The translations under genes and the position numbers were made by a program. This document shows, piece by piece, positions 2,113 to 53,792 of a DNA stretch of 64,000 bases (position 1 is the stretch's first letter; each line of letters opens with the position of its first letter). The notes beneath the pieces were generated by a model. That model searched no databases and was not told the DNA's origin. It saw nothing but the letters and a program-made list of their open reading frames with translations. Source of the stretch: a virus (lineage: Duplodnaviria > Heunggongvirae > Uroviricota > Caudoviricetes); IMG/VR virus record IMGVR_UViG_2721755711_000002. One strand, given 5' to 3'.

Positions 2113-2347
2113 CGGAATCCACCTGTTTCTCTCTCTTCGCCTTCGCTTTTACCTGCACGGCGTCCTGTTCAGCCGTCACGATAGTTTCAGGCTCATCCTT
2201 CACCAGAATCAGGTCACCGTCCTGAACGGCTCGCCGGTAATAAACGGTGTTCTCAACGGTCACAACTTCCGTGGTGATGTATTTCCGGGCGTTATCCTCC
2301 ATCGGGAACTTCATCCCGGGAGCCGCCTTAACCTTCATTTTGTTCAT
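2105..2347 (-). CDS. small phage protein (DUF2635-like) upstream of sheath
   Basis: 80 aa ORF overlapping the sheath start; conserved position in Mu-like late operons. Confidence 0.45.
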   Translation of the reverse strand: MNKMKVKAAPGMKFPMEDNARKYITTEVVTVENTVYYRRAVQDGDLILVKDEPETIVTAEQDAVQVKAKAKREKQVDSDE

Positions 2348-2924
2348 GCTGTTGCTCTCTTAATTCAGTCAGCCCTGATATTTCAGCGTCGCTGTCCTGC
2401 ATCTGGTACCGGATGCCAAGGTTCAGCAGCTCCGGGTCAAGGTCTGACAGCCTGCCGTGGTAGCGGTTGAAGAGGCGGTCCGCTTCTGCGCCACGCTCCG
2501 GCCATTTGCCGTTCTCCAGCGCGTGCTCCACCCAGCGGGTATCGAACTCACAGGCAAACACGGACATTGCCCGCTCTGCCACGCCGGTGTTAAACAGCGT
2601 CCTGACCCGCCCGGGTTCGAAATAATCAATCTCCAGCCCCAAATCCTGACCGGTCAGCAGGCGACGGACGGATTCAACCAGCTGGTTTGTCCCGACCTCA
2701 TCCCGGACGGTGCCTCCCTGTCTGGCGCTCTGTTCGCTGCGGGTGTTGTAATCACCCACCACAACCACAAAGCGTCCGGTGGCAATGTATTTCCGGCGTG
2801 ACGTGGAATAGCGTTCGGTTTTCACGATGCCGCCGAACGTCACCCAGGCTGCCGGAAGGCTGCGAACAATCCGGCCCGGATCTTCATCCAGTTCACCGGC
2901 ATAGGTGCGGACATCCTGCACCAT
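2328..2924 (-). CDS. Mu gp37-like virion protein (DUF1834-like); start uncertain
   Basis: Six-frame ORF 2328..3065 extends into the IS element. Upstream of the insertion point the native frame hits a stop with no canonical start codon, so the first native ATG (2924) is proposed as start. Confidence 0.45.
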   Translation of the reverse strand: MVQDVRTYAGELDEDPGRIVRSLPAAWVTFGGIVKTERYSTSRRKYIATGRFVVVVGDYNTRSEQSARQGGTVRDEVGTNQLVESVRRLLTGQDLGLEIDYFEPGRVRTLFNTGVAERAMSVFACEFDTRWVEHALENGKWPERGAEADRLFNRYHGRLSDLDPELLNLGIRYQMQDSDAEISGLTELREQQHEQNEG

Positions 2925-3030
2925 ATGCCCCAGACCACAGCGCAGACGCTCAACCAGCGCCCGTTCAATTTCAGTAATCAGAATGCACTGAACCGCCCCG
3001 GGTTTCCTGGAGAGTGTTTTATCTGTGAAC

Positions 3031-3922
3031 TCAGGCTGCCAGATCATCGTTTCCGATGGAAGCATAATAAGCTTTTTCTGCTTCTGCCGGTGGGATATGG
3101 CCCAGCCTTTCCAGCAATCGTCGATTGTTATACCAGTCCACCCACGTGAGTGTGGACAGCTCCACTTCTGTCCGGTTTTTCCAGCGCTTACGGTGTATTA
3201 CCTCCGCTTTGTAAAGGCCATTGATGCTTCTCCGCCATCGCGTTGTCATACGAGTCACCAGTACTCCCTGTTGATGCCAGTAAGCCGGCTTCCTTAAGCC
3301 GCTGCGTGTAGGCCAGCGATACATACTGAGAACCTTTATCACTGTGGTGGATTGTGCCGGACGGCCGACGGGCCCACAACGCCTGCTCCAGTGCATCCAG
3401 CACGAATGCCGTTTCCATGGATGATGAGACCCGCCATCCCACGATGTATCCGGCGAACACATCAATGATGAACGCCACATAAACGAAGCCCTGCCATGTG
3501 TTTACCCAGGTAAAATCAGCCACCCACAACTGGTCAGGACGTTCTGCCACGAACTGACGGTTTACGCGGTCGCATGCGGCAACGGCTTTCCGGCTGACGG
3601 TAGTGCGGACCTTTTTACCCCGGAGAACACCGGCAAGTCCCATAACCGCCATGAGACGTGCCACAGTGCATCTGGCCACTCTGATACCTTCCCGTAACAA
3701 CTGACGCCAGACTTTACGCACACCGTATACCTGGTGATTTTCATCGTATACGCGCTGTATCTCTTTCTTCAGCCAGTCATCGCGCTGCGCACGGGCACTG
3801 CGTTTATCAGGATGATGTCGCTGTTGCTGACAGTGGTAATACGTTGACGGGGCAATATGCAGTTCGCTGCATACCGGTCCGACCCCGTACTGCTCACGCA
3901 GCTTATCCAGCAGTGGCATCAT
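3031..3922 (-). pseudogene. IS3-family transposase OrfB (DDE catalytic subunit), disrupted by frameshift
   Basis: OrfB homology is split across two frames (3188..3922 and 3031..3480). The break is near 3228 where the sequence reads gag aag cat, versus gag agc atc expected for ...AMAESINGLYK..., consistent with a 1 bp insertion. Confidence 0.7.
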
Positions 3923-4245
3923 TTTTTCCAGAGGCGGTCGAACTCCGCCTTCGCAAAATAAGCGGAAGCCTGGCGAAGGATATCGTTACTGCGGCGCAGT
4001 TCACGATTTTCACGTTCCAGCTCTTTCAGACGCTGACGTTCAGCGGTGGTGAGCCCACCATCACCGCCCCCGGTATCCCGCTCATGCTGGCGAACCCAGA
4101 CACGCAGAGTCTCCGGCGTACAGCCAATTTTTGGGGCAATGGAACAAATTGCCGCCCACTGTGAATCATACTCATCCTGACTTTCCAGAACCATACGAAT
4201 CGCTCGCTGACGGACTTCGGGGGAAAAACGAGTATTTTTAGTCAT
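3919..4245 (-). CDS. IS3-family transposase OrfA (HTH DNA-binding subunit)
   Basis: 108 aa protein [22 protein letters not shown]... matches remembered IS629/IS1203 OrfA; SD GAGAAAGAGG upstream. Confidence 0.85.
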
Positions 4246-10999: not shown

Positions 11000-12703
11000 T
11001 TACCATCCTCCTGAACCAAAACGCCCGCCACGGTCACGCCCGCTGCTGCGTGGGGTGTGTATCTGAAATTTTGCGCTACGCGAAACCGCCAGCGTCCACA
11101 GCATGTGCAGACAGTCCGGGCCATCATCGTGGTCAGCTTTGGGGTAGTGGCGCAGCTGGTCAATCAGCGTCTGATGTGTGTGGCTGATACGAATCAGGCC
11201 GTTGGCCATATGCGGCTGAAGGGATTCGATACGCAGTGCCTTATCCTCCAGCGGGATGACCGGCAGCGCCGGAACCGGTACGCCCAGCGCCGCCGAACGC
11301 TCAACCAGCACGGTACGCAGAAACTCCTGAAACTGAACGGACTCAAACGACCAGCACAGACAGTGGTATTCCCGCTGATACTTGATCACGTCTTCGATAA
11401 TTTTATTCGGCAGACGTCGGCGGATATCGGCTTCAACCACATCCAGAATGCCGGTAAAGCGGTTAAAGCCCCCCACGAGAATGGCTGACGGGTCGCGGTT
11501 TTTATTCTTCTTCCCGAGACTGGGGTCAGCAGCACCATAAAACACCCATTCATCAAGACGGTTAACCCAGAACTTAATGCAGCCCGCAAACAGCGCGTCT
11601 TCACCGCTGACCGGGTCGTTCTGGTATTCAGAATCAAAGGTGTCGTGACCGTCACGGACACGAATTTTCATCAGTGCCAGCAGTGGACGCGCCGCCCATG
11701 ACACCACCGACCCGGCGAGCATGTCGGCTTCGTTCTGCTGATAAAGCGCCTCCGCCGCTTCCGGCTGTTTGTTGCGGATGAGTTCTTCCCACTCGTCCCA
11801 CAGCTTCATGTTGGCAGGCCACTGAATGACGGCCTTAAAACGGGCCGTTTTCCACATCGGGTTATTGAGTGTGCGCGACAGTACGGAGTCGTAATGCAGG
11901 ATGGTCCCGATATAAATAATATCGGTTTTACCGCCAGCCTCGCCCAGCGGCATCACGGTTTTGGTAAGCCAGTTATGCAGCTTGTCGCGCTGCTCCGGGT
12001 TACGCACCATCTCGTCGTTCTCGATGTCGTCGAGGATGACCAGGTCAGGACGGTACGGACCGTGGCGCAGACCACGCAGTTTTTTACCACTACCGGCAAC
12101 GGTCACCTTGATATTGTTGGCTGTGACGATGGTCCCCATACGCCAGACGCGACCCTGCCCACACACCTCCGGGAAATCGTTTTTTAAACGGGGGTTAAAT
12201 TCCAGTTCAGCCTTGATGGCTTCCAGCATCGGATAAGCCTGGTCGATACTGTCCATAATGATGACCGGATAATGCTTAATACCCCGGATAATGGTCCACA
12301 GGGTAAACAGCTGAGTCACCAGCGTGGATTTTGCTTCACCACGGGGCGCGGCGATGGCGTCGTTCTCCGGGTCCGGGCTTGCCACAACCTGTGGCAGACG
12401 GGTGAACAGGTATTTATGCAGCTCACTTTTTGCCGGGTTGCGGACGTAGTGCGGGAAATAGTTTTCGACAAAATAATCGTAGCCCGTCACCGGGTCGCAG
12501 ACTGCCGCCCGGCGGGCCTGTGTGGCCTGCGGGTTAACATCGAACCCCAGACATTCAGCCTCAATGGTCTGGCGGAGGTTGGCGATGTACTCCTGCAGGC
12601 TTCTCTGAAACTCTTTAATGGAAAGTTTACGTTTACGTTTTGCCACGTCACACCTGCGCTGTTTCTGCCTGCGCTTTTTCGATACGTGCGCAGGCGATAT
12701 CAA
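11000..12703 (-). CDS. terminase large subunit (Mu gp28-like)
   Basis: 567 aa ORF preceding portal; N-terminal basic segment; start may be internal because the ORF overlaps the methyltransferase gene end. Confidence 0.75.
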   Translation of the reverse strand: MISPAHVSKKRRQKQRRCDVAKRKRKLSIKEFQRSLQEYIANLRQTIEAECLGFDVNPQATQARRAAVCDPVTGYDYFVENYFPHYVRNPAKSELHKYLFTRLPQVVASPDPENDAIAAPRGEAKSTLVTQLFTLWTIIRGIKHYPVIIMDSIDQAYPMLEAIKAELEFNPRLKNDFPEVCGQGRVWRMGTIVTANNIKVTVAGSGKKLRGLRHGPYRPDLVILDDIENDEMVRNPEQRDKLHNWLTKTVMPLGEAGGKTDIIYIGTILHYDSVLSRTLNNPMWKTARFKAVIQWPANMKLWDEWEELIRNKQPEAAEALYQQNEADMLAGSVVSWAARPLLALMKIRVRDGHDTFDSEYQNDPVSGEDALFAGCIKFWVNRLDEWVFYGAADPSLGKKNKNRDPSAILVGGFNRFTGILDVVEADIRRRLPNKIIEDVIKYQREYHCLCWSFESVQFQEFLRTVLVERSAALGVPVPALPVIPLEDKALRIESLQPHMANGLIRISHTHQTLIDQLRHYPKADHDDGPDCLHMLWTLAVSRSAKFQIHTPRSSGRDRGGRFGSGGW

Positions 12704-14161: not shown

Positions 14162-14344
14162 TCAGTTCTGCGAACACTGCCGGATGCCGTCAATAATCCG
14201 GCAGACCTTTGCCGCCGCGTCAAACAGCTGGCCCGCTCTGTTAATGTCTGTGCATCCCACCGGAAGCAACATCACCAGAAACAGGGCCAGAACACAGCGC
14301 GCGGCTTTACGTGGCGTTCTGTGGGTCCAGTGCTGACGCGTCAT
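14162..14344 (-). CDS. small lipoprotein (lysis-associated; possible outer-membrane spanin-like)
   Basis: 60 aa protein with signal peptide and lipobox (LLPVGC), three Cys in the roughly 30 aa mature part; start overlaps endolysin stop. Paralog at 27166..27348. Confidence 0.5.
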   Translation of the reverse strand: MTRQHWTHRTPRKAARCVLALFLVMLLPVGCTDINRAGQLFDAAAKVCRIIDGIRQCSQN

Positions 14345-14886
14345 ACCGCTACGCGCTCCTTCAGCCAGCCATAAACAAACGATTCGTTAGCCTCGCGTTT
14401 CTCTGCCAGTTCCAGATAGCGGTCACCCTGCGTGCAGTTCAGGGCTGTCAGCATCACCCGTTCGCCGTCCTGACCGCGATTATTCAGGAAGGCGCGCAAT
14501 GCGCTGATGGTACGAGGTCCGATGCGTCCGTCTGCGTCCATATCCGGGTACAGCCTGCCGCGCAGGTTGAAAACGTTCAGCCAGCGTTGGAGCATTTTTG
14601 ACGCCACGGATGGCCCCATATTCACACCGGTATCACACAGCTCTGCGGCAATATCAGGGGATAATGCCGCAACCTGATCAAATCGCGGGCCATACCAGTA
14701 ATCGGCTTCAAGGATGTCCAGCGCCTGTTCGCGGGTTAACTCACGCATATCGCCACGGTATCCGTGGGCACGGGCGACTTTTTCCGTAATGCCCCATTTG
14801 GTCGGGCCGCCCTTATCATCCGGGTGATTGACGTAACCGCCTTCTTTGCCCAGGACTTCATCAAAAATTTCATCTTTTGATTTCAT
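14341..14886 (-). CDS. endolysin, glycoside hydrolase family 108-like with peptidoglycan-binding domain
   Basis: 181 aa protein; N-terminal ...EGGYVNHPDDKGGPTKWGIT... is the hallmark of GH108 phage muramidases. Confidence 0.8.
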   Translation of the reverse strand: MKSKDEIFDEVLGKEGGYVNHPDDKGGPTKWGITEKVARAHGYRGDMRELTREQALDILEADYWYGPRFDQVAALSPDIAAELCDTGVNMGPSVASKMLQRWLNVFNLRGRLYPDMDADGRIGPRTISALRAFLNNRGQDGERVMLTALNCTQGDRYLELAEKREANESFVYGWLKERVAV

Positions 14887-15172
14887 GTGGATGCCTCAGT
14901 AACGAAAGGATTTTTGACAAATTCCCGTGCGCCCACACGATAAGCGCACAGAAAACCAGATTCAGCGCCACAACCAGCCAGCTGGAGTGCGTGTATGTAC
15001 CGGACAGCCAGCGGAACGGGATGATGATGTAGCCGAGCATCAGCCAGTACGCCAGCCAGGTAATCATCGGTTTATGCGCCGCACCGTGGCGGCGATACAC
15101 AAACAACCCCAGCACAATGGCGAGGCACAGCCAGACGTTCACGATACCGGCAAGGCTACTTTCCATTTCCAC
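14870..15172 (-). CDS. membrane protein (holin-like)
   Basis: 100 aa protein with multiple hydrophobic helices directly upstream of the endolysin. Confidence 0.45.
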   Translation of the reverse strand: MEMESSLAGIVNVWLCLAIVLGLFVYRRHGAAHKPMITWLAYWLMLGYIIIPFRWLSGTYTHSSWLVVALNLVFCALIVWAHGNLSKILSLLRHPHEIKR

Positions 15173-15548
15173 CCCCTCCGCCGCGCAGTCTGGAAAACAG
15201 GCCGAACAGCGATGAAATTTCCTGTTGATAAAGAAAAGTCAGTATCTTGATGGATAAAGCAGAGACACCGACCGCACACAATGCATCGAGCGGTTTGTCG
15301 TTATAGTGGGTCAGCCACTGCATCAGTGACGCAGCCACGCCAGCCCCCAGAACGCCAACCACAAACGCGACGAGCAGGTGAATAGCCATTCGCCATACCG
15401 GGATTTCTTTCTGCTGAGTGACAACAAAAAGCGCCCCGGCAAACGCGCCCACCACGACCCCGAAATCGGTATTGGTGAGAAGGCCAAACACACTGGCACC
15501 ACCGATGGTGACTGCCACAGCTCCGCCGCCTGATAAGGGTTCAGACAT
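15156..15548 (-). CDS. membrane protein (holin/antiholin-like)
   Basis: About 130 aa from ATG 15548 (SD AGGAGAAA); Gly/Ala-rich transmembrane segments. Confidence 0.45.
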   Translation of the reverse strand: MSEPLSGGGAVAVTIGGASVFGLLTNTDFGVVVGAFAGALFVVTQQKEIPVWRMAIHLLVAFVVGVLGAGVAASLMQWLTHYNDKPLDALCAVGVSALSIKILTFLYQQEISSLFGLFSRLRGGGGGNGK

Positions 15549-15730
15549 GAGTTTCTCCTGTAAATCTGAGCCACTGACGGCCCGTAAATAACACCCTGTC
15601 AAAGGCACAAAAGCCTTTTGCAGGGCGCTATCCCTTAAGGTGCCTTGTGGTCTGAGTGGACAGGGTAAACGGTCTGGTGTGGTGGGTACTGCTGGGGGAG
15701 TTCAGCACCCCGCGGCGGCGGGGTGATAAA

Positions 15731-20155: not shown

Positions 20156-20548
20156 TTAAAAATCGAAGACGTCAGTTAATTCCCGCTTCAGTGAAACGCA
20201 CTCAGAATAAAAGCCCTCGCTCTCACCGCACCATCTGACGACTACACAGCCTTTTGATGTGCCGAACTTAAAGAAACTCCATGTCTGATGACCTTCCCCA
20301 ACATCACATTCTTCGGTAACCACTTCAGCCTCTGTCAGCGGTTCATCTTTCAGGTCGTCAAGGTCTCCGACGATGTCCTCAATCCAGACTTTTTCGCAGC
20401 CTTCCTGAAAGTGGAAAAATGTAAACACGGTTCCCCATACTCCCCGGGAATAATCACCACGAAAAACAAGTTCATCGTTTTCATTCTTAACTACTTCTTT
20501 AAATGTACGCCCGAGCATTTCATTGATAACGGTAACACTCATTTTCAT
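20156..20548 (-). CDS. hypothetical Cys-rich accessory protein
   Basis: 130 aa; preceded by hairpin motif copy 3 and GGAG SD. Confidence 0.45.
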   Translation of the reverse strand: MKMSVTVINEMLGRTFKEVVKNENDELVFRGDYSRGVWGTVFTFFHFQEGCEKVWIEDIVGDLDDLKDEPLTEAEVVTEECDVGEGHQTWSFFKFGTSKGCVVVRWCGESEGFYSECVSLKRELTDVFDF

Positions 20549-20622: not shown

Positions 20623-20814
20623 TTAATGCGGTGCTTTCAGTGTTTCGACTTTTACGAAATAAGGCTCGACATTAATTTCAACCACACAACCACATTTAAA
20701 ATCTCTGGCAGGTGAAACGGTTTTCACCACACGACCACCACGCAACGCCGGATGTGCAGTGTGCATGAAGCGAGTCCCTACCGGATACTGCTTATTAAAG
20801 TTCTTCGCATTCAT
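20623..20814 (-). CDS. hypothetical small protein
   Basis: 63 aa ORF followed on the minus strand by hairpin motif copy 3. Confidence 0.3.
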   Translation of the reverse strand: MNAKNFNKQYPVGTRFMHTAHPALRGGRVVKTVSPARDFKCGCVVEINVEPYFVKVETLKAPH

Positions 20815-21028
20815 GGCGTGGCCTCCAGCCCTTCAGGTGAGCGTTAGCGCAGAACTCCGCACGATGTTCAGCCCAGATGCGGCGCAGGGTGCTACACGGG
20901 CTTTGTGCTGCCTTACGCCACAGCTTTTCAGCCTCGGCATAATCACCGCGCTGTTCAGCTCTTGACGCTCCCAGTGAATACGCCGCGCAACGGTTCCCGG
21001 CTCTGTACTCTTTGATATCCTGATGCAT
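20795..21028 (-). CDS. hypothetical small protein
   Basis: About 77 aa from ATG 21028, 1 nt after the stop of the upstream gene. Confidence 0.3.
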   Translation of the reverse strand: MHQDIKEYRAGNRCAAYSLGASRAEQRGDYAEAEKLWRKAAQSPCSTLRRIWAEHRAEFCANAHLKGWRPRHECEEL

Positions 21029-23082: not shown

Positions 23083-25125
23083 TTAACGATTATTTGTGCC
23101 GTTTTTCTTTAAATTGCGCTCACGGTCAGACACGAATAAATAAAGTTCTTCTTTTTCCTTTTTCTCCTGGCGTTCCAGTCCATATCCCAGATTAAACTCA
23201 GGTTTCTGCGTAATAGCCGGGGTAAGTTCGCGTTTAGCCTCTTCGATTTTCTGCGTGGCCCGTGCAATGCGGCCTCGGGCGCGTTTCTCCTGCTGCTGTT
23301 CGATAACGGCTTTCGGGAACGCATCGACCTTGTTACCGTTCCAGATGGCATCGCAGATATAAGAACCGTCCATTCGCCTGACAATCACGCTGTTTGCGTC
23401 GTGAATGTCGTAACAAACCCTGACTTCATTTCCGTGCTCTGCTGCCAGTTCTGTGGAGAAATAGATGTTTCTGAATAACACCACTTCACCGCGTCGCACC
23501 GTGCAGATGCTTTCCGGTCGGAACATTTCATGCAGTTCTTCCGGCGACAGCATGTCGATTTCAGCCTTTTGCTCTTTTATCAGTTTCCGGCGATACGCTG
23601 CCGGGCTGTAATGTTCGCCATCCTCTTTGCGGGGAAGGCTGCTGTGTGGTCGGTTGTTATACCGTTTCACCTCCAGCTCTATTGCGGCCAGCAGTTGCTC
23701 AAAGGTGGGGACTTCTCCCATCGCTTTAACCTGCCGTTTTGTCAGCTCTTTCCCTTTGTGGGTGGCCTTAATGGCTGACTGTGTGATGCGTTGCTGCATC
23801 ATCACCGTTTCCTTGTCTGCATTTTTTGAGCAGTACGTCTGGAAACTCAGGGCCACATCTTTGGGTATTCCTTTGTTTGCCCGTTCTATTACCCCGCGCC
23901 CCTGCGGGTTACCAGGTATCCCCGTGTGATGCTCCACACCCAGTCGGGGCAGAATCCCGGTAATATCGGCATCAAGCACCCGGTTTTTTTCACCGCCCCC
24001 GTTATCGGAGTAATAAATCAGCGGTATTCCGTGTTGTGACATGCCATGACGCAATGCATCAGCAACGGCTATCACGTTCTCCGACAGGGACAGCGACCAG
24101 CCCACAATAAAGCGTTGCCCCGCATCCATAACCAGCGTCACTTCTGGCCGGAATGTATTCCCGGTGGCGGGGCTGAATGCCATCAGTTTCATACAGTGAC
24201 CATCCCCGACCCATACCGCATTAACCGGTAATGTGCTCCAGTCGCGCCGCACAAAGGGATTGAGCGAACGCCAGGCTGAACCGGTGGAGCGGAAACGCTC
24301 CTTCACAATCACCGGGACGTTGCTTAACACCCGTCTTACTGCGTGAACTGAAGGCAGTGCTGCCAGCATTCCTGCGTCATTCGCGTGCTTTTCATGCCAC
24401 CAGGCTGAAAACTCGCGATACGCATATTCAACGGTCGGGCGCTTCCATGAGCGATAGAACATAAAGAAATCGCTCAACCACCAGACCTGCTCCCACGGTG
24501 TTCCCTTATGATGACCGGGAGCCAGTAACGCCAGTAACTGATTGGCATCACCGCGCGCCATCAACCAGGCGGAATACCATTCCTGCAAACTTCCCCAACT
24601 GACGCCAGTTCGCTTACCCTGTCTGGCGTTTGCAGTGCCTGCGGCCTCAATAATGCGGTCAGGTAACGCCCCCATGCGCACACCATCAATGATGTGTTTT
24701 ACTGCTGCCGTCCTGGACATTCCTGCGTATTCACGCAGTTTATGCACTTCGGTAGCCAGCAATATCCGCGCATCAGCGATGGCCTTTTGCTTGTCGGTCA
24801 GTGCCTGAACTTCGCGTAATGCCAGTTCCGGGCATTTGACCATCACTTCCAGTTCATCGCGAACGGTGACGTTTTTAACTGCCTTCTGCTCAACCACGGC
24901 GGGCAGTTGCGCATCTTCCAGAACCTGATGAGTCAGGCGCTTACGTAAAACTTTCTGCGCTTCAGTGGGCAGGCAGTCGATGTGATACTCGAATGCTTTG
25001 GTGCCTTCACGCTTGCGCTTCCATTCCGGGTGCGTCTCTGTGATCCGATTGAGCGTCCAGCGCACCCCCTGAACTGTACCGGGCAAACCAGGAAGACCGG
25101 CCAGCTCATTGGCTGAATAAAACAT
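23083..25125 (-). CDS. Mu-type DDE transposase (MuA-like)
   Basis: 680 aa ORF between ner-like and B-like genes; size and organisation as Mu A. Confidence 0.8.
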   Translation of the reverse strand: MFYSANELAGLPGLPGTVQGVRWTLNRITETHPEWKRKREGTKAFEYHIDCLPTEAQKVLRKRLTHQVLEDAQLPAVVEQKAVKNVTVRDELEVMVKCPELALREVQALTDKQKAIADARILLATEVHKLREYAGMSRTAAVKHIIDGVRMGALPDRIIEAAGTANARQGKRTGVSWGSLQEWYSAWLMARGDANQLLALLAPGHHKGTPWEQVWWLSDFFMFYRSWKRPTVEYAYREFSAWWHEKHANDAGMLAALPSVHAVRRVLSNVPVIVKERFRSTGSAWRSLNPFVRRDWSTLPVNAVWVGDGHCMKLMAFSPATGNTFRPEVTLVMDAGQRFIVGWSLSLSENVIAVADALRHGMSQHGIPLIYYSDNGGGEKNRVLDADITGILPRLGVEHHTGIPGNPQGRGVIERANKGIPKDVALSFQTYCSKNADKETVMMQQRITQSAIKATHKGKELTKRQVKAMGEVPTFEQLLAAIELEVKRYNNRPHSSLPRKEDGEHYSPAAYRRKLIKEQKAEIDMLSPEELHEMFRPESICTVRRGEVVLFRNIYFSTELAAEHGNEVRVCYDIHDANSVIVRRMDGSYICDAIWNGNKVDAFPKAVIEQQQEKRARGRIARATQKIEEAKRELTPAITQKPEFNLGYGLERQEKKEKEELYLFVSDRERNLKKNGTNNR

Positions 25126-25361
25126 TACGCCGCCTTACTGGCATACCGGCTTGGCCAGATCTCCGCAGGTTCCACACCAATAGCATCGGCTATGATGCGT
25201 TCATATTTAGGGCATGAGCGATACAGTGCATTTTTTAAAGAGTCTTTTTTTAGACCAGCGCGTTCAGAAAGTTCACGCAATGTAAAACCTTTGGTGTGCA
25301 CAGCGGCAACGATGTACTCGCGGTGCCAGTCTTTGTTCATTACTTCATTTCTAACCATCAT
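25125..25361 (-). CDS. ner: Ner-like DNA-binding regulator
   Basis: About 78 aa from internal ATG; C-terminal ...IADAIGVEPAEIWPSRY... closely resembles remembered Mu Ner (...ANALETKPEVIWPSRY...). Confidence 0.7.
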   Translation of the reverse strand: MMVRNEVMNKDWHREYIVAAVHTKGFTLRELSERAGLKKDSLKNALYRSCPKYERIIADAIGVEPAEIWPSRYASKAA

Positions 25362-25543
25362 TAGGTTACCCTTAAAAGTTATCCGTGCGGATAACACCGC
25401 CGTGTTATCCCTTCGGATATAAGTATTGATCCATATGTAACCCATGTAAAGCAAAAATAGCCTTTTCTTTGTATTTTCTTTTTGCTTTTGGTCTTTATAT
25501 GGTTTTGTGATTGAAAATCAATTGGTTAAATAGGAAAGGAAAA
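25362..25543. promoter_or_regulatory. divergent early/repressor promoter-operator region
   Basis: AT-rich intergenic region between divergently transcribed ner-like and repressor genes, analogous to the Mu Pe/Pc operator region; no motif-level assignment made. Confidence 0.4.
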
Positions 25544-26191
25544 ATGACAAAAAATGATGACGCTTTTTCTTTAGTTGACCGAGGAAAAGAAAGTTTTAGA
25601 GAGCGTTTAGTAAAACTAATAGGTGGGCGCAGTGTCAGAACTGCCGCGAGCGACTGGGGTATCCCTCCTTCAACCTTAAACAACTACATCCATAAAGGAA
25701 CAGAACCCTCTTTTAAAATAGCCTGCCTTATCTCAGATAAAGAGCGGGTGAGTTTAAATTGGCTCGCTTATGGTGAGGAACTCACCGCCACAGCAAACTC
25801 TTTATCAAACCAAACAGCGCAGCCTTCTCCCGATATTACAAACGAGCTAGCTAACGAGTTATTGAAAAGAGCGTCCACAGAAGATAAAGAACTATTGATA
25901 AATGCAATATGTGATATGGGTATCAAAGGAATCCTAAAACGTCTGCAACAACCCACTAGGCAAGCGAAACAAGCCGCTAACACGCTGGAGGAGCAAGAGA
26001 ATGCTATCCAAAGTCTGAATATCAGGAAATCACTTAAGGATGCAATCCGAGTAGCATTACATGGAAACGAAGATACTGACAGAGAGATTTTGCGAATTGT
26101 TGAATCTCATATACGACCACAATCGCCGGGTGATCAGACCGATGTCACACCGGAGCAAGAAACAAAATCTGTAAGTAAAAAATCAGCATGA
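25544..26191 (+). CDS. prophage repressor (HTH, XRE/CI-like)
   Basis: 215 aa from ATG 25544 (SD AGGAAAGGAAAA); N-terminal HTH-like segment (...RTAASDWGIPPSTLNNYIHKG...VSLNWLAYGE); divergent from ner-like gene. Confidence 0.55.
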   Translation: MTKNDDAFSLVDRGKESFRERLVKLIGGRSVRTAASDWGIPPSTLNNYIHKGTEPSFKIACLISDKERVSLNWLAYGEELTATANSLSNQTAQPSPDITNELANELLKRASTEDKELLINAICDMGIKGILKRLQQPTRQAKQAANTLEEQENAIQSLNIRKSLKDAIRVALHGNEDTDREILRIVESHIRPQSPGDQTDVTPEQETKSVSKKSA

Positions 26192-26479
26192 ACGCCTCGT
26201 TTTGGCGGGGCGCATGCTGCTAACTAATCAGCAACAACCACATCAAAACAAAACCAAACAGGAAAAATAAGGAAACGGGTACAGATAAAGCCCGTTTTAA
26301 AAGCATTTAAAACACGATCAATTATCTGCCATTAATGATTAAAACAGTCCAGATTTGAGCGCAAAAAAATGTACTTTTGATCATTTTCTTCAAAACGATC
26401 CAGAATCGGTAAAATCTCTCACATCCTGCGCCACTCAAGGCTTATAGGCTCGTCCAGGCTGTTCTCACTCAGTCCAGAA

Positions 26480-26755
26480 TTGATCACTACCCCACAGGTA
26501 ACAGAAGACGGTCGTCATGTTGAGGAAGTGCATGTCCTGGGGGATATGTACCGCCTGGAGTTCTATCCGCGTAACACTCATCTTGCAGCGAAGATTGAGT
26601 ATTGCCGGGACGGGAATATTCCGTGCATTCCTGTAGAAAAAGAGGATGAAGCCTACATCATCACACTGAACGGTGACACGGCGCGTTGTATCTGTCGTGG
26701 CGACAGTGAAGCCCGGAATGAAATAGCAAGATGTCGCGCCCATACAGATAAATAA
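26480..26755 (+). CDS. hypothetical ORF, possibly a 3' gene fragment truncated by the Mu-like insertion
   Basis: ORF begins only with a TTG call immediately outside the Mu-like end, without a convincing SD; followed by a strong terminator. Confidence 0.25.
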   Translation: MITTPQVTEDGRHVEEVHVLGDMYRLEFYPRNTHLAAKIEYCRDGNIPCIPVEKEDEAYIITLNGDTARCICRGDSEARNEIARCRAHTDK

Positions 26756-26764
26756 AAAGCAAAA

Positions 26765-26795
26765 ACCCCGGCTGCGGGAACAGTTCGGGGTTTTC
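26765..26795 (+). terminator. rho-independent terminator
   Basis: CCCCGGCTGCGGGAACAGTTCGGGG stem-loop followed by TTTT. Confidence 0.5.
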
Positions 26796-26826
26796 TGTTT
26801 CTGACCTTGAGTAAGCAAGGGAGAAC

Positions 26827-27009
26827 ATGGAGAAGTATAAACGAATTCTGTTTAGGTTGACTATGAAAAACGGCCTTGAATTGAAAGCGCCTGTAACTGA
26901 TGACATCAGCAGAGCGGTGGCTTTTGCCATTAAGTGGGTGGCTGTCGGTATCGCTGTGTCTCCGATTCTGTATGGGATGGCAAAATTGATCATTGCTGTG
27001 AAATCGTAA
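26827..27009 (+). CDS. small C-terminally membrane-anchored protein
   Basis: 60 aa; strong SD AAGGGAGA; C-terminal hydrophobic helix. Confidence 0.4.
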   Translation: MEKYKRILFRLTMKNGLELKAPVTDDISRAVAFAIKWVAVGIAVSPILYGMAKLIIAVKS

Positions 27010-27027
27010 GTGGGGCAGGGGTAAATA

Positions 27028-27161
27028 TGTCAGATAGCATTATAAAACTGGCGCGAATTCTCTGTGTGGTTGTTGGCCTTTCATTTTCAGCAATGTTGGT
27101 TGCCATTTTCATTTCCACCGCCTGGCGAGTATTGAGCTTATCCGGATTGATTGGTGGATAG
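27028..27161 (+). CDS. small hydrophobic membrane peptide
   Basis: 44 aa, almost entirely one transmembrane helix; SD-like GGGG upstream. Confidence 0.3.
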
Positions 27162-27165
27162 TGAG

Positions 27166-27348
27166 ATGAAGCGAAAACACTGGACACACAGAATGCCGCG
27201 AACGGCGGCGAAATGGGTACTGGTAGCGATACTGGTGCCTTTTTTCCTGGTGGGATGCGTCAGCCTGGATAAGGCGCGCCAGCTTTTCGATACGGCTTCT
27301 CAGGTCTGCGAAATTGTCGACGGTGTTCGACAGTGTCTGCAGAGCTGA
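27166..27348 (+). CDS. small lipoprotein, paralog of 14162..14344
   Basis: 60 aa; HWTHR motif, lipobox LVGC, conserved QLFD...VC.I.DG.RQC core shared with the Mu-like copy. Confidence 0.5.
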   Translation: MKRKHWTHRMPRTAAKWVLVAILVPFFLVGCVSLDKARQLFDTASQVCEIVDGVRQCLQS

Positions 27349-27510: not shown

Positions 27511-27735
27511 ATGAAGAGATTACTGGTAACCGTAAAGCCCTTTAACGGAACGATTCCATTCAGGGTTTTGCAGCGTGGACGTGTTCTGGTTAAGGATATC
27601 TTCAGTGGTAAATGCACGGAATGTTATTCCCGGACATATGAAGTGGATGCCACGGATGAAGAAATTTCTGTTGAATGTGATCTGAACGCGAATATGGCGG
27701 GGATTGTAACAGCCACGTTGTTGCCGGTTTCATGA
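27511..27735 (+). CDS. hypothetical small protein
   Basis: 74 aa from ATG 27511 with SD GGAGGGG. Confidence 0.35.
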   Translation: MKRLLVTVKPFNGTIPFRVLQRGRVLVKDIFSGKCTECYSRTYEVDATDEEISVECDLNANMAGIVTATLLPVS

Positions 27736-27991: not shown

Positions 27992-28052
27992 CTGGCTGTG
28001 ATGCCTGTTTGTAGCCCCGCAAATGCGGGGCTTTTTATATTTGGAGACGATA

Positions 28053-28445
28053 ATGAAAAAAACAGAAAATAAACCGGTTGCAATTGGTGCCGCTGTTGTT
28101 CCGTTTAAGTTTGAGTTGTCTCAACTGGTGGAGATGCGCATCAGTGATGAATGGGGTGAGGTTAAAGCCCGCGCGCAGTATGCGGATGGCGAAAACCAGT
28201 ACTTGATCCACTACAAGGCTGCTGATGGTCGCGCCACAACGGCGTGGTTTGGTGAGTCAATGCTGGAAGCAACAGAAGATGATCGCCATCCGGGCTGTCC
28301 GGTATTTGCCGGTATGAAATTACCGGAAGGCGCAGTTGAACTGCAGCCGGGTGAGGTGTTCGTAATGTCAGAAGTCATTGATGGCAAACCGCAGTATTCA
28401 CGTATTGAAACTAACGGCAAGGACGTTTGTCTGGTTCGCAAGTAA
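28053..28445 (+). CDS. hypothetical protein
   Basis: 130 aa from ATG 28053 with SD GGAGA; followed by a hairpin. Confidence 0.4.
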   Translation: MKKTENKPVAIGAAVVPFKFELSQLVEMRISDEWGEVKARAQYADGENQYLIHYKAADGRATTAWFGESMLEATEDDRHPGCPVFAGMKLPEGAVELQPGEVFVMSEVIDGKPQYSRIETNGKDVCLVRK

Positions 28446-47306: not shown

Positions 47307-47499
47307 CGGCGATATGCTGGATGATATCTGTCAGAGACACTACGGCAGCGCCGGACTCAACCAGTCACTGGCGGCGGTACTGGAGGCTAATCCCGGGCTG
47401 GCTGATCTTGGTCCGGTGTATCCGTCCGGGGTGGAAATCGTGTTACCGGACTGGACATATGAGCCGGAAGAGAAGGAGACGTTTCAGTTATGGGACTGA
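47281..47499 (+). CDS. X: tail protein X (P2 gpX-like)
   Basis: 72 aa ORF between U-like and D-like genes, overlapping both. Confidence 0.6.
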   Translation: MAKNWRTTDGDMLDDICQRHYGSAGLNQSLAAVLEANPGLADLGPVYPSGVEIVLPDWTYEPEEKETFQLWD

Positions 47500-48566
47500 A
47501 TGAATATCAGCCGGATTTCAGTCTGACGGTGGAAGGCGAGGATATCACGAAAGCAATAAAACGCGGACTGGCTGAACTGCGTTATACCGATAATGGTGCT
47601 GCCACAAAGCGGGCTGATGAGTTAATGATAACGCTGTTCAGTGAAACGCTGGCATTGCCACCGAAAGGCGCAGTATTAACGCTGGGGCTGGGGTTTAACG
47701 GACGTCTGGTGAATAAGGGTAGCTTTACTGTCTGTCAGGTGGCAAGCGGTGGCCCTCCCCGCCGGATCACCATTTATGCCACAGCAGCCCCCATGAATGC
47801 GTCCAGGCATGGTGCAGATGTGACTGCACTGAAAACCCGCGCCTTCAGCGATGTCACGCTGGGTGACCTGGTAAAAACGATCGCCACTGAAAATAATCTG
47901 GTGGCGCGGGTATCTCCGGCACTGGAGAAAATTCGTATTCCGTGGGTGATGCAGTCATCTGAGTCGGATGCGTCCCTGCTTTCCCGGCTTGCAGGGATGT
48001 ACGGTGCCACCAGTAAACCGATGAACGGTTACTGGTTATTTCTGGAGTATGGTGCGTCGCAGAGTACCGGAGGCAGGGATGCCCCTGTGATGACCATCAC
48101 ACCGGATATGGTGTCAGACTGGGATTACCGGGAGGGCGATCGGCAGGGGGCATCCGGAGGCGGAAAAGGGGGAAAGGTTGGTGTCAGGTACTTTACTCCG
48201 TCTGATGGTCGCACGCGTGAACTTAAAGTGGATGTGGAGTCCACAGACAAGCGGCATCCCTTCACCCAGCCAGACCAGAGCACGGCAGAACATTGTGCAC
48301 AGTCGAAGGTAAAGCGGGTGCAGAAAGCGGGGCGTCAGATGACGATAACGCTGCCCTGCCGACCGGTATTGCTGAAAGCGGGGGCGGAAGTGCGCTTTAT
48401 CACACGGGGCTTCGGGGTACGGGAGGACCATAACTGGCAGGCAGAGTCAGTGGAATTTTCGTTGTCACCGGTGCAGGGATTTTCGCTGAATCTGTCGCTG
48501 GCCACGGATATTTCTGCAAAGGGGAAAGCCAGTGGCAAGAAAAAAGGCGTCAATTATTTTGGTTAA
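47490..48566 (+). CDS. D: late control / tail protein (P2 gpD-like)
   Basis: 358 aa ORF closing the P2-like tail cluster. Confidence 0.7.
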   Translation: MGLNEYQPDFSLTVEGEDITKAIKRGLAELRYTDNGAATKRADELMITLFSETLALPPKGAVLTLGLGFNGRLVNKGSFTVCQVASGGPPRRITIYATAAPMNASRHGADVTALKTRAFSDVTLGDLVKTIATENNLVARVSPALEKIRIPWVMQSSESDASLLSRLAGMYGATSKPMNGYWLFLEYGASQSTGGRDAPVMTITPDMVSDWDYREGDRQGASGGGKGGKVGVRYFTPSDGRTRELKVDVESTDKRHPFTQPDQSTAEHCAQSKVKRVQKAGRQMTITLPCRPVLLKAGAEVRFITRGFGVREDHNWQAESVEFSLSPVQGFSLNLSLATDISAKGKASGKKKGVNYFG

Positions 48567-48590: not shown

Positions 48591-49226
48591 ATGTCTGTAT
48601 TAATTTCGGGTGTGCTGACGGATGGCGCGGGACTCCCCATGTCCGGATACCATATTATTCTGAAAGCCAGACAGAATACATCCGCAGTGGTCATGAGAAC
48701 GGTGGCTACAGTGATGACAGGTCCGGCAGGAGAATATGCTTTTGAAGCTCAGACCGGAAAATATGACGTTTATCTTCGGTCGTGTATTGAAAGGGAATAC
48801 TGTGTCGGTGATATTTCGGTTTACGACGACTCAAAGCCCGGCACGCTGAACGACTTTTTGACCGCTCTCGACGAAGGCGACCTCAAACCCGACGTGGTGA
48901 AACGCTTTGAGGAAATGGTGGCGCAGGCGCAGCAGGGTGCCGAAACTGCAACAGAAAGCGAACGACAGGCAGGGCAACATGCAGACGCTGCCGCCCGGGC
49001 AAAAGAAGATGTAAAAAAACTGGTGGAAGGTGTTCAGCAGAACGCCGACGCGGTTGCGGAGGGTAAACAACAGGCCGAAACTCTGGTCTCACAGGTTGAG
49101 GATACCGCCGCAGAGGTCAGGCAGGATGCTGAAGCCGCGAAAAAGGCCGCATCTGATGCAGAGCATGTCAGGGAGGATATTGACACTGCGTTATCTGCGA
49201 CACTGAAAACGGCGAATCGCCTGTAA
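48591..49226 (+). CDS. side tail fibre N-terminal domain protein (Stf N-terminal fragment)
   Basis: 211 aa; ...ISGVLTDGAGLPMSGYHIILKAR...GKYDVYL...VYDDSKPGTLNDFLTA...PDVVKRFEEMV... parallels remembered lambda Stf N-terminus; stop codon lies in the junction core. Confidence 0.6.
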   Translation: MSVLISGVLTDGAGLPMSGYHIILKARQNTSAVVMRTVATVMTGPAGEYAFEAQTGKYDVYLRSCIEREYCVGDISVYDDSKPGTLNDFLTALDEGDLKPDVVKRFEEMVAQAQQGAETATESERQAGQHADAAARAKEDVKKLVEGVQQNADAVAEGKQQAETLVSQVEDTAAEVRQDAEAAKKAASDAEHVREDIDTALSATLKTANRL

Positions 49227-49271
49227 ACGATTCGCCGTTTTCAGTGTCGCAGATAACGCAGTATCAATATC
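49176..49271. repeat. near-palindromic junction: 44 bp inverted arms (35 bp perfect, then one mismatch) around an asymmetric 8 bp core CCTGTAAA
   Basis: 49188..49219 is the exact reverse complement of 49228..49259; arms continue as roughly 630 bp diverged inverted homologs (the two Stf N-terminal genes). Confidence 0.9.
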
Positions 49272-49856
49272 TGCTCTGGCCTGCTCTGCACCGGATGCGG
49301 CCTTTTTCGCGGCTTCAGCATCCTGCCTGACCTCCGCGGCGGTATCCTCAACCCGTGAGGCCAGATTTTCGGCCTGTTGTTTACCCTCCGCAACCGCGTC
49401 GGCGTTCTGCTGAACACCTTCCGCCAGTTTTTTTACCTCTTCTTTTGCCCGGGCGGCAGCGTCTGCATGTTGCCCTGCCTGTCGTTCACTTTCTGTTGCA
49501 GTTTCCGCGCTCTGCTGCGCCTGCGCCACCATTTCCTCAAAACGTTTCACCACGTCGGGCTTGAGGTCGCCTTCATCGGGGGCGGTCAGAAAATCATTCA
49601 GTGTGCCGGGCTTTGAGTCGTCGTATACAGCAATATCTCCAACACAGTACTCGTCGCGCCAGCCCTGCTTCAGATATACGCAGTATTTTCCGGTCTGCGC
49701 CTCAAAACAGTACTCGCCACAGTTTCCTGTCACCACGTCGGCAACTGTGCGCATCACCACCTCTGAGGTGTTTACCCGGGATTTCAGAATTATGTGGCAT
49801 CCGGACATGGGGATGCCTGCGCCATCAATCAGCGCACCTGATATCACTACAGACAT
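49191..49856 (-). CDS. side tail fibre N-terminal domain protein (second, diverged Stf N-terminal fragment)
   Basis: 221 aa, similar along its whole length to 48591..49226 (roughly 85 to 90 percent by eye); reads through the junction core and ends 10 codons into the opposite arm. Confidence 0.6.
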   Translation of the reverse strand: MSVVISGALIDGAGIPMSGCHIILKSRVNTSEVVMRTVADVVTGNCGEYCFEAQTGKYCVYLKQGWRDEYCVGDIAVYDDSKPGTLNDFLTAPDEGDLKPDVVKRFEEMVAQAQQSAETATESERQAGQHADAAARAKEEVKKLAEGVQQNADAVAEGKQQAENLASRVEDTAAEVRQDAEAAKKAASGAEQARADIDTALSATLKTANRLQAIRRFQCRR

Positions 49857-49879
49857 AGTTTTTCTCGCGATAAATTAAA

Positions 49880-50428
49880 TCAGGAAGAGGCTTCCGGAGA
49901 GACGGGCCATTCAATGGCGTTATATGAGGCTTTATCAGTGATGGTGCTGAAATCCATCGCCTGCAGCGATTTCGCGTAAATGCGGTACGCTTTCAGCTTT
50001 TCCCTGTCTTCGTCGCTGATTAATCCCAGCAGCAGGTCTTTTTCCCATTCGCTGGTCATGATACTGACCTGTTTTAACAGGGCATCACGCTCGTCTTCCG
50101 CTTTAAGTTTGTAGTCGAAAACAAATTCATCATTGCGGTAAAACCAGTAGCCTGATGCTTCAATGCGACGATTAGCGGTAATATCCGGCAACTCAATCAC
50201 GCTTTTATTTTCCGGGCAGATTGAGGTGATGTCTTTTCCGACCCAGACCACTTCGCCAGTTTTAACATAAATAACTTTCAGGGTGTCTGGTAGAAATTTT
50301 TCCTGGGCTTCGTGCCATTCCTGTCCATCATCTGAGAACAGCCACAATAAAAATTTATGCTGTCGCGCCAGCTGGTATTGCTCAATTGTTTTAGGGTTTT
50401 GTACCGTAATATTTTTTAAGTGCATCAT
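49880..50428 (-). CDS. tail fibre assembly chaperone (Tfa-like)
   Basis: 182 aa; C-terminus ...SYNAIEWPVSP; directly downstream of fibre gene. Confidence 0.8.
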   Translation of the reverse strand: MMHLKNITVQNPKTIEQYQLARQHKFLLWLFSDDGQEWHEAQEKFLPDTLKVIYVKTGEVVWVGKDITSICPENKSVIELPDITANRRIEASGYWFYRNDEFVFDYKLKAEDERDALLKQVSIMTSEWEKDLLLGLISDEDREKLKAYRIYAKSLQAMDFSTITDKASYNAIEWPVSPEASS

Positions 50429-50430
50429 GA

Positions 50431-51924
50431 TTACAAACTCGCTACATTTCTCCAGACGCCATTAATCAGAACCTGCACCGGGCGTGCATTGGCCCAGTTC
50501 ACACTTTCACCGCCATCAACACCACTCAGTAAATGACCTGATGGCGCATTTCCCCCGCGTCCAATACCAATGGCGCTTCCCAGACGTACATCCTGCACGC
50601 CGCCTGTTTTGGTCTGATAGCGGGCATCAAAGTTTCCGTAGTTTGATGGAGTTATCTGCCCATTTACAGCGAATGTGACGCTATCGTCTGTATTTCTCTG
50701 ACTGTAGAAATGCCAGCCGGAATCATCACCAAGTTCTGCAACTACAGGTCTGGATGGATTACCCCATAAATTAAACCCTACGTTCTTCGTGGAGCTGTTG
50801 GAGCTGGATAGCGTGAATTTTTTACTATCCCCGGCCTGAACGTTTTTAAAAGCAATAGCAACTCCATTCTGAAAGCGAAATACGCGCTGATTATTAGCAT
50901 AAACATCCAGAATGCCATCGCCGTTTTGTTTTATACCGGTGTCGTTATCTCCGAGAGTAATGGAATTACCGCCCAGTGCGTTATCCGTACCAAGCGCCAG
51001 CCCACCATCAATTTTGGCCCCGTGGCTGACAGATATAGCACCTGTTCTCAGATTTATAGCAAATGGCCTTAATGGGCCAATATCGCCATTCTCGCCCTGA
51101 CCTTCACTGGTAGGGATAAGGTGCAGGCACTCTTCCGAACGACGAAAAATCAGGCCAAAAGCGTCGTTGAAAATCCTCAGCGCATTAACACCACGGATTT
51201 TCAGCTCCCCGGTCATCAAATCACCAGATTTTTTTACATATCGCAGATCAAAATCTGAATAGATATTGCCGGGGTTTATCACGCTGAAATAGCTTTTCTC
51301 GTTATCAAGAAGGCAAATCAAAGGAATACCTTTAATGATATCATTCGCTACCAGCTCGGACTTGTTCCCCTTATAAAGTGGGAACGTACCAAGAACCTTT
51401 CCGCCTAGTGTTAGTTGAAGTGTCGCCGCGTTGGTATTGTTCTGAACGGGGAAAACGATAATCGGGGTTCGTAGTGTCCAATCTGTACCTTCATTAACAA
51501 AAAACGTCGAGGGAAGCTCCAGCGTCAGTGTGTTTGCAGTGCCACCAGCAACACCCGCAATATAATGACCGCTCTGAAGCTGCGCTATCTGTACGAAATA
51601 GTTTTCCGAACCACGCGTGGCAAAGTTAGCCACAACGTCATTAAGGGACCAACCTTTCGCGGTTGTTCCTTCCTGCCCACGAATGACTTTCAGCACATCG
51701 CCGCTTACTGATACCAGGTGACAAATCTCAAATGCAGACTCTTTATTATCGGTAAGCGTAATTTTTGCATAGACGCGTTGCCCGTTCGATTTATTTTCAA
51801 AATCGGCAGAAAGCAATTTTGCAAATTTAGCTCCCGTGCCCGGCATCACCGGAATATCAGTCTGAATCGTCGTGATATCGCCAGCCAGTGCTGAAACAAC
51901 GTTATTGCCAAATCCAAGAATCAT
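50431..51924 (-). CDS. tail fibre protein
   Basis: 497 aa; C-terminal roughly 200 aa nearly identical to the H-like fibre at 40865..42091; start overlaps upstream stop (ATGA). Confidence 0.8.
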   Translation of the reverse strand: MILGFGNNVVSALAGDITTIQTDIPVMPGTGAKFAKLLSADFENKSNGQRVYAKITLTDNKESAFEICHLVSVSGDVLKVIRGQEGTTAKGWSLNDVVANFATRGSENYFVQIAQLQSGHYIAGVAGGTANTLTLELPSTFFVNEGTDWTLRTPIIVFPVQNNTNAATLQLTLGGKVLGTFPLYKGNKSELVANDIIKGIPLICLLDNEKSYFSVINPGNIYSDFDLRYVKKSGDLMTGELKIRGVNALRIFNDAFGLIFRRSEECLHLIPTSEGQGENGDIGPLRPFAINLRTGAISVSHGAKIDGGLALGTDNALGGNSITLGDNDTGIKQNGDGILDVYANNQRVFRFQNGVAIAFKNVQAGDSKKFTLSSSNSSTKNVGFNLWGNPSRPVVAELGDDSGWHFYSQRNTDDSVTFAVNGQITPSNYGNFDARYQTKTGGVQDVRLGSAIGIGRGGNAPSGHLLSGVDGGESVNWANARPVQVLINGVWRNVASL

Positions 51925-53757: not shown

Positions 53758-53767
53758 ATCTACCCCA

Positions 53768-53792
53768 TAAAAAAACCGCCGAAGCGGTTTTA
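53768..53792 (-). terminator. bidirectional rho-independent terminator after cargo gene
   Basis: ACCGCC GAAG CGGT hairpin flanked by A-run and T-run. Confidence 0.55.

Follow-up and report, generated by a model that had tools for sequence, protein, structure and literature searches.

In the stretch of DNA analysed here, a 64,000-nucleotide sequence of a tailed phage (IMG/VR record IMGVR_UViG_2721755711_000002; hereafter, the window), three small genes lie in a row on the plus strand: TA60 (26827–27009), encoding a 60-aa tail-anchored inner-membrane protein; p44 (27027–27161), encoding a 44-aa peptide with a single transmembrane (TM) helix; and a lipoprotein gene (27166–27348, with an alternative start at 27193). 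It is highly likely that these genes are members of a lysis cassette of the phiP27 type and that this cassette was split by a Mu-like element. The fuller explanation, in which the trio is the distal end of such a cassette and the lipoprotein is the factor that fills the spanin slot, is favoured with moderate confidence. Within the window, this amounts to nothing more unusual than a lysis region interrupted by a Mu-like insertion, while the lipoprotein family would be a mildly surprising variant on the spanin theme.

The initial annotation had described three small membrane and lipoprotein genes in a row just outside a Mu-like end, with the endolysin missing from this side and with the lipoprotein as a paralog of another gene, and these descriptions hold. 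All three open reading frames (ORFs) are present on the plus strand, the first beginning about 330 nt past the c-end of the Mu-like prophage (~26496); no endolysin gene is found between 26497 and the terminase genes at 29028; and the paralog, at 14162–14344 (minus strand), is 55% identical (tblastn, 4e-21). A reasonable Shine-Dalgarno sequence precedes each gene (AAGGGAGA in the case of TA60), and the intergenic gaps are 17 nt between TA60 and p44 and 4 nt between p44 and the lipoprotein gene. The first 28 residues of TA60 are polar and positively charged, with a hydrophobic stretch following at the C-terminal end (about 29–58), p44 has its one TM helix at about residues 11–30, and the lipoprotein precursor is 60 aa long, or 51 aa if started at Met10 (27193), with a mature part of 30 aa behind the lipobox FLVG↓C and Val at +2. 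Full-length matches were obtained to phrog_1115 (TA60, 9.5e-41), phrog_4906 (p44, 1.6e-19) and phrog_7528 (lipoprotein, 6.1e-37), all of them families of "unknown function", and comparison with homologues indicates purifying selection on all three (pairwise ratio of non-synonymous to synonymous rates, dN/dS, 0.17–0.36, with dS of 0.3–1.8); chance ORFs are ruled out by these dN/dS values and PHROG matches. Scans of the three proteins and their neighbours against Pfam, NCBIfam and PADLOC gave no meaningful match, and no experimental work on the three protein families was found in the literature.

Comparison with intact relatives of the lambdoid prophage shows the trio to be the end of a lysis cassette, as had been proposed, since E. 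coli R1, ten other E. coli prophages and 76 of 76 informative IMG/VR loci carry holins and an endolysin just upstream. In E. coli R1 (locus L001), the order is a Phage_holin_8-like holin, a second holin, a GH108 endolysin, a 68-aa gene (unannotated and Cys-rich), a 93-aa gene, TA60, p44, the lipoprotein gene, three small genes and the terminase. In the ten other E. coli prophages, the six genes adjoin one another, and TA60 starts 140 nt after GH108. These ten loci continue into either HK97-type (Terminase_4/TerL) or lambda-type (Nu1/GpA) packaging genes; because the same trio stands beside either packaging module, it belongs to the lysis module and not to the packaging module. The general phiP27-type order is Phage_holin_8, Phage_holin_3_7, an endolysin (GH108 muramidase or M15 peptidase), optional TA60, optional p44 and the lipoprotein gene, which is the invariant last gene of the cassette.

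The IMG/VR sample comprised the best 80 of 285 lipoprotein-encoding loci and holds many near-identical prophages, so that its counts are descriptive and not independent. Both holin genes and the endolysin gene lie upstream of the lipoprotein gene in 76 of the 80 loci, the remaining four contigs being too short to judge; the endolysin is GH108 in 31 and an M15 peptidase in 45 of the 76. At most 20 nt separate the endolysin stop from the lipoprotein start in 28 loci, TA60 lies between endolysin and lipoprotein in 39/76, p44 is present in 19/76, and Rz was found in none of the sampled loci. The position downstream of the endolysin also recurs in all ten E. coli loci and in Mu-like, Lelliottia, Citrobacter and Salmonella loci. 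For instance, Lelliottia has a different holin, GH108 and then a lipoprotein that is 55% identical, and Citrobacter has an M15 peptidase followed by the lipoprotein, while the Salmonella order of GH108, ant and lipoprotein mirrors the order R, ant, Rz in Shiga toxin (Stx) phages. It can be seen from these loci that the lipoprotein gene, with or without TA60 and p44, is syntenic with the genes of the phiP27-type cassette in the relatives. Two further observations concern its surroundings. The small Cys-rich genes of E. coli R1, L001 11694–11900 (68 aa) and 11981–12262 (93 aa), each with its own terminator, occupy the endolysin–TA60 gap exclusively in this lambdoid lineage, and they resemble typical moron units. 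In addition, a 140-aa soluble protein (window 28023–28445, phrog_1935) travels with the lipoprotein, coming after it in loci of the lambdoid and HK97-like kinds and also in the Mu-like loci L012 and L015, there with 56% identity.

The point at which the window departs from the intact arrangement can be placed almost to the base. The left (c-repressor) end of the Mu-like prophage (26200–26496, minus strand) is delimited by homology breakpoints, with its last base at about 26496 (...CTACCCCACA before the joint, GGTAACAG... after it): homology to other Mu-like prophages stops at about 26496–26500 (query positions 1197–1201 of window 25300–26900), and homology to lambdoid prophages begins at 26493–26497. 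What follows at 26497–26755 (plus strand) is the 3' part of the 93-aa moron gene (phrog_33497, 2.2e-43, residues 7–90), which the Mu-like insertion truncates at codon 8; the ORF listed at 26480–26755 is this truncated gene with a TTG start taken from Mu-like DNA. The empty site ATGTACGCACTCAAGAAAATCAC^GGTAACAG, with the 93-aa gene intact, is present in E. coli R1 and in an IMG/VR contig (L033) that shares 4.85 kb with the window at 98.9% identity, and because of these empty sites the cassette is read, on the sequence comparison, as split by Mu-like transposition into a small gene between endolysin and TA60, and not as having lost its endolysin by deletion or decay. The same Mu/lambdoid junction was found in none of 5,426 complete E. 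coli genomes. The lambdoid holins and endolysin are accordingly expected to lie past the far Mu-like end, outside the window. The trio and all lambdoid head and tail genes would then be separated from the late promoter by a whole Mu-like genome in opposite orientation, and the insertion probably cripples late gene expression of the lambdoid prophage. On the Mu-like side of the joint lie a repressor gene (25511–26191, plus strand), a ner-like gene (25125–25454, minus strand) and the gene for a Mu-type transposase A (23083–25125, minus strand).

The Mu-like prophage carries a complete lysis cassette of its own at 14162–15608 (minus strand), in which Mor, Phage_holin_8 (15156–15608, Pfam 5.2e-25), Phage_holin_3_7 (14870–15172, Pfam 6.7e-17), a GH108 + PG_binding_3 endolysin (14341–14886, Pfam 6.8e-27/1.5e-26), the lipoprotein paralog and DUF1804 follow one another. 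The start of the paralog overlaps the endolysin stop (ATGA), and this GH108–lipoprotein layout with the ATGA overlap is repeated in eight other Mu-like loci and in the Mu-like prophage of E2348/69. Compared with the lambdoid module of E. coli R1 (L001 10401–11605), the Mu-like module (14341–15608) has identities of about 60% for holin_8, about 50% for holin_3_7 and about 87% for GH108, with 55% for the lipoprotein. Judged by these sequences, the presence of homologous lysis modules in both prophages reflects an exchange of modules, within a single chromosome region, between temperate phages of unrelated types. Elsewhere in the Mu-like prophage, an IS3-family element (3188–4245, minus strand; an HTH_Tnp_1 ORF at 3919–4245 and an HTH_21 + rve ORF at 3188–3922) sits in the late/tail region beside a gp37-like gene (2328–3065).

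In the lipoprotein, the cysteine of the lipobox (FLVG↓CVS) is invariant in intact members of the family, the degenerate P0113 having Gly instead, and the residue at +2 is V, A, T, S or G. Because Asp does not occur there, the motif is that of an outer-membrane lipoprotein, and after export and lipidation at Cys31 the protein would be directed to the outer membrane. The mature part is proline-free, has two invariant cysteines (C-x8/9-C) and is moderately amphipathic (hydrophobic moment, muH, ~0.5), with a net charge of −1 in the lambdoid, +1 in the Mu-like and +2 in the Lelliottia protein; its C-terminus (...VDGVRQCLQS) is hydrophilic, and the signal peptide is the sole hydrophobic segment. When the lipoprotein alignment was used as a profile to search 1.84 billion representatives exhaustively, it returned 20 clusters at 50% identity, all of them from its own family, and no link to a known o-spanin, to Rz1 or to any other family; the named members all come from Enterobacteriaceae genera.

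When set against lambda Rz/Rz1, the lipoprotein occupies the same cassette slot (last, after the endolysin), is likewise an outer-membrane lipoprotein with periplasmic cysteine(s), and has shared flanks in related phages. However, it comes without an i-spanin, its gene is not embedded or overlapped, and it has no sequence similarity to Rz1, which is proline-rich and unstructured, whereas the 30-aa mature lipoprotein is proline-free and predicted to be helical. Of the features of a two-component spanin, a lipobox and a location in the lysis cassette are present, but an inner-membrane partner and a bridging length are not: the combined periplasmic length is too short to bridge the membranes, since the mature 30 aa would span about 4.5 nm if helical and no partner domain adds to them. 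In phage T1, too, one lysis-cassette gene encodes a protein with a lipoprotein signal, the u-spanin gp11, but gp11 has a C-terminal TM domain and a periplasm-spanning domain of about 100 aa; the lipoprotein stops 29 residues past the lipidated Cys, has no hydrophobic tail and lacks the C-terminal TM domain of that class. Spanin-free disruption of the outer membrane by a short amphipathic peptide has been reported for the "disruptin" gp28 of phiKT (bioRxiv 10.1101/515445); disruptins are highly cationic amphipathic peptides with no export signal, and the lipoprotein does not have this character, gp28 being strongly cationic with no lipoprotein signal and the window protein being a lipoprotein with a net charge of −1 to +2.

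The cassettes of related phages indicate what the slot may be used for. In phage vB_EcoS-783R2 (L032), the order is R, p44, TA60, Rz/Rz1 and p74, and in the window's lineage it is GH108, TA60, p44, lipoprotein and p74, so that the flanks are shared and the centre differs; the 74-aa gene p74 (window 27511–27735, plus strand, phrog_2571), the downstream neighbour of the trio, has its homologue (68%) behind Rz/Rz1 in vB_EcoS-783R2. Phage GER2 (L010) is the only locus with both Rz/Rz1 and a lipoprotein gene; there, Rz/Rz1 is complete, and the lipoprotein copy (L010 4309–4476) is unannotated and contains two in-frame stops. The same slot and flanks, the parallel ant insertion and the decayed copy in GER2 together suggest that the lipoprotein performs the job of Rz/Rz1. 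In a survey of Stx phages (PMC8136144), Rz was found in 277 of 279 phages, and the canonical metallopeptidase endolysin in only two; those without Rz and those with this endolysin all belong to cluster C. We infer that the two Rz-less phages, which the paper leaves unnamed, are these same phiP27-type phages.

On the proposed mechanism, the lipoprotein, with its 30-residue proline-free domain (predicted to form an amphipathic helix) and two invariant cysteines, would perform or trigger the outer-membrane step of lysis after holin and endolysin action, without a conventional i-spanin. Whether the lipoprotein is an outer-membrane lysis factor at all is, in our judgement, an evenly poised question. 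The bolder proposal, that this 51–60-aa protein is a stand-alone outer-membrane lysis factor and a third solution beside spanins and disruptins, is regarded as rather doubtful; on it, the protein would need no inner-membrane partner and would work from the outer membrane's inner leaflet as an amphipathic helix that is oligomeric or stapled by disulfides. If the lipoprotein does disrupt the outer membrane, the mechanism is one not yet described.

TA60 and p44 are not restricted to cassettes with the lipoprotein. Phage records with a member of the p44 family (43–44 aa, single TM) number 276; most are of Stx1a and Stx2a phages, and most leave the gene unannotated. The gene is near-universal directly upstream of Rz/Rz1 in Stx phages (for instance, L003 and L029–L032). 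TA60 was found in 14 phage records and lies between R and Rz in PhiR12-type phages; its two subfamilies, 48% identical, have in common an N-terminal KYKRxxLRL motif and a C-terminal TM domain. Stx-like phages, whose pinholin/SAR-endolysin cassettes are unrelated, have both genes as well, and there they always immediately precede a canonical Rz in which a proline-rich Rz1 is embedded; the occurrence of TA60 and p44 with SAR-endolysin/pinholin and with GH108 cassettes shows that they are not tied to one endolysin type. They have a TM domain and a lysis-cassette location, no Pfam holin family matches either of them, and the cassette already holds two holin-family genes. Small dispensable membrane proteins encoded beside endolysin or spanin genes are familiar from P2 LysA, the Mu gp25 releasin and antiholins, with none of which homology to TA60 or p44 was detected. 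An accessory or regulatory role is tentatively assigned to TA60 and p44, which would be dispensable inner-membrane accessories to either outer-membrane module (the lipoprotein or Rz/Rz1) and would most likely tune lysis.

Meanwhile, the 5' end of TA60 has features that may reflect antisense control. A bidirectional terminator hairpin (AAAACCCCG...CGGGGTTTT; 26757–26801), of which the minus-strand version has the better T-run, lies upstream of TA60 in 17 distinct variants, whichever gene precedes it (the 93-aa gene, GH108, the M15 peptidase or the R lysozyme). A putative minus-strand promoter (TAGTCA-N18-TATACT; 26834–26863) lies within TA60 codons 3–12, and its −10 element (TATACT) is invariant in 17/17 TA60 variants, including the 48%-identical subfamily (TGGACA-N18-TATACT), while the −35 remains promoter-like across variants (TGGACA, TTGTCA, TGGTCA). 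The predicted antisense RNA, about 70–100 nt long, would cover the Shine-Dalgarno sequence and start codon of TA60 and end at the T-run of the hairpin; the version of about 70 nt has a predicted fold of −24.1 kcal/mol (z = −3.4). The layout of promoter and terminator is shared by L001, L002, L009, L010, L019 and IMG/VR loci. Cis-antisense RNA control of TA60, by which the protein would perhaps be restrained, is hypothetical. An Rfam "sar" match over the TA60 start was treated as chance, at 23 bits against a gathering score of 43 and not recurring in homologous loci.

Several other explanations have to be weighed against the reading of the trio as the end of a split cassette with the lipoprotein in the spanin slot. 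The published one comes from a survey of spanins in which phiP27 is listed as having a "separated" two-component spanin, both parts of which are singleton families (Kongari et al. 2018, BMC Bioinformatics 19:326; PMC6139136). Its "o-spanin" (20706–20861 of NC_003356; PMC6139136 supplement), with 83% helix predicted in the table of that paper, is of the same family as the window lipoprotein, 93% identical over 60 aa, and has the same place after Phage_holin_8, Phage_holin_3_7 and the endolysin and the same predicted helical mature part of 30 aa; the call was purely bioinformatic, and the window gene, unlike that of phiP27, is detached from the endolysin by the Mu-like insertion. The periplasmic residues of the two phiP27 parts, 32 + 30 = 62, are the minimum of the surveyed range of 62–300 aa (PMC6139136). 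A canonical two-component spanin, with the lipoprotein as o-spanin paired with TA60, p44 or the phiP27 64-aa ORF, would also accord with the admission in the discussion of the same paper of i-spanins with a C-terminal TM domain, which is the shape of TA60, and with the direct abutment of TA60 and lipoprotein in phiSTEC1575-Stx2k. Nevertheless, the phiP27 "i-spanin" (20348–20542) is a 64-aa ORF with a TTG start and no PHROG family (L004 3670–3864, plus strand), antisense to a 90-aa ORF (L004 3654–3926, minus strand) that matches phrog_36812 over its full length, and no homologue of it was found in any other context examined; lacking conservation and running antisense to a real gene, it was rejected as the partner of the lipoprotein, and a shadow ORF is the probable explanation for the i-spanin call. 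Under this comparison of sequences, the two-component assignment published for phiP27 fails. TA60 and p44 were likewise rejected as obligatory partners, since many cassettes lack them: they are missing from the Mu-like, Lelliottia and Salmonella cassettes and from 37/76 IMG/VR cassettes. The N-terminal positive charges of TA60 moreover predict an N-in topology with almost nothing periplasmic, while p44, whose 276 phage records have it together with a complete Rz/Rz1, exposes about 14 residues. Scans of the window's Mu-like part and of 26 kb of L001 revealed no second lipobox ORF, and neither in these regions nor in L005–L008 was an i-spanin-like ORF (N-terminal TM domain plus periplasmic domain) found; therefore, the defining partner of a two-component spanin is missing, and pairing of this kind is very improbable.

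Less remote, although still unlikely, is that the genes are morons, the lipoprotein acting in lysogenic conversion or superinfection exclusion and TA60 and p44 being exclusion membrane proteins placed in the gap between lysis and packaging genes. Phages do encode small outer-membrane lipoproteins, such as Bor of lambda, Cor of phi80 and N15, and Llp of T5, and lambda bor lies between the lysis and packaging genes. The region is plainly rich in morons: in L001, two small Cys-rich terminator-bearing genes separate endolysin and TA60, and in Salmonella and Stx phages an ant gene is inserted there. TA60 and p44 occur in just 39/76 and 19/76 loci, and TA60 brings its own terminator and a possible private regulator. 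However, the genes for Bor, Cor and Llp are autonomous and not endolysin-coupled, bor being on the opposite strand, and their products have no homology to the lipoprotein, which had no Pfam or NCBIfam match to them at E ≤ 0.1, nor any PADLOC match to defence families. Unlike such autonomous morons, the lipoprotein gene is invariant in the cassette and has late-strand orientation, and its start meets or overlaps the stop of the endolysin gene in the loci of Mu-like prophages, Lelliottia and Citrobacter and in the 28 IMG/VR loci with short gaps; no plus-strand promoter was found upstream in a scan, and the gene is decayed where Rz/Rz1 is present (GER2). A further explanation concerns TA60, and perhaps p44, as type I toxin-like or otherwise toxic membrane peptides silenced by a cis-antisense RNA in an addiction or abortive-infection module, an alternative to lysis that the initial annotation had also raised. 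These are small hydrophobic single-TM peptides; the terminator and the minus-strand sigma70-like promoter are kept in 17/17 variants, including synonymous AAG TAT choices in the 48%-identical subfamily; the predicted 70-nt RNA folds well over the translation start; and the arrangement resembles that of P22 sar/ant and hok/sok, in which an antisense promoter sits early in the gene and a bidirectional terminator immediately precedes it. Yet the promoter-like site is only a 9/12 match to the consensus, such sites are fewer in the region than expected by chance, and conservation of the −10 and −35 is confounded by the conserved KYKR...LRL protein motif. No Rfam family was matched at threshold, the sar match included, and the two proteins match no known toxin family in Pfam, NCBIfam or PADLOC. 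In contrast to P22 sar/ant and hok/sok, TA60 is embedded in lysis cassettes, and since TA60 and p44 always stand there before the outer-membrane module, in two unrelated cassette types, a role in lysis fits better; the toxin explanation is considered quite unlikely.

Some points weigh against the split-cassette reading itself with the lipoprotein as spanin-slot factor. The proposed roles of all three genes derive from position and conservation, and position alone is weaker evidence here than in the Mu-like context, the lysis–packaging gap being a classic moron site and two moron units, each with a terminator, parting the trio from the endolysin in this lambdoid lineage. The proximal half of the lambdoid cassette would lie outside the window, and the dependence among the sampled IMG/VR loci belongs here as well. 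As for the lipoprotein, the 30-residue mature part is too short to cross the periplasm and has no conserved partner, the AlphaFold2 model is one long helix of low confidence (predicted local distance difference test, pLDDT, 64), and the lipobox of the Mu-like paralog is atypical (LLPVG↓C, with Pro at −3).

These loci form a class of enterobacterial lysis cassettes without a credible spanin, in which a tiny conserved lipoprotein occupies the spanin slot; the class includes a Shiga-toxin phage and Mu-like prophages of enteropathogenic E. coli. Spanin-less phages made up 91 of the 677 in the survey of Kongari et al. 2018 (PMC6139136), and the lipoprotein family would be a tractable E. coli case for how such phages breach the outer membrane. 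Should the stand-alone reading be true, hundreds of prophages in Escherichia, Salmonella and Citrobacter would use the factor, among them the Stx2e phage phiP27 and the Mu-like prophage of E2348/69; p44 would be an overlooked near-universal component of Stx-phage lysis cassettes, and TA60 would be under a sar-like antisense RNA. Lysis timing governs the release of Shiga toxin from Stx phages, and for this reason the unknown members of their lysis cassettes are worth knowing.

Apart from the lysis region, myovirus-type tail and baseplate genes occupy the window from about 49200 to 64000 on the minus strand, opposite to the lambdoid head genes, with Baseplate_J at 52531–53757 and an SLT-domain tape-measure-like gene at 58674–60647, and a Phage_GPD-like gene lies at 47490–48566 (plus strand); this tail region may be another prophage or a rearrangement.

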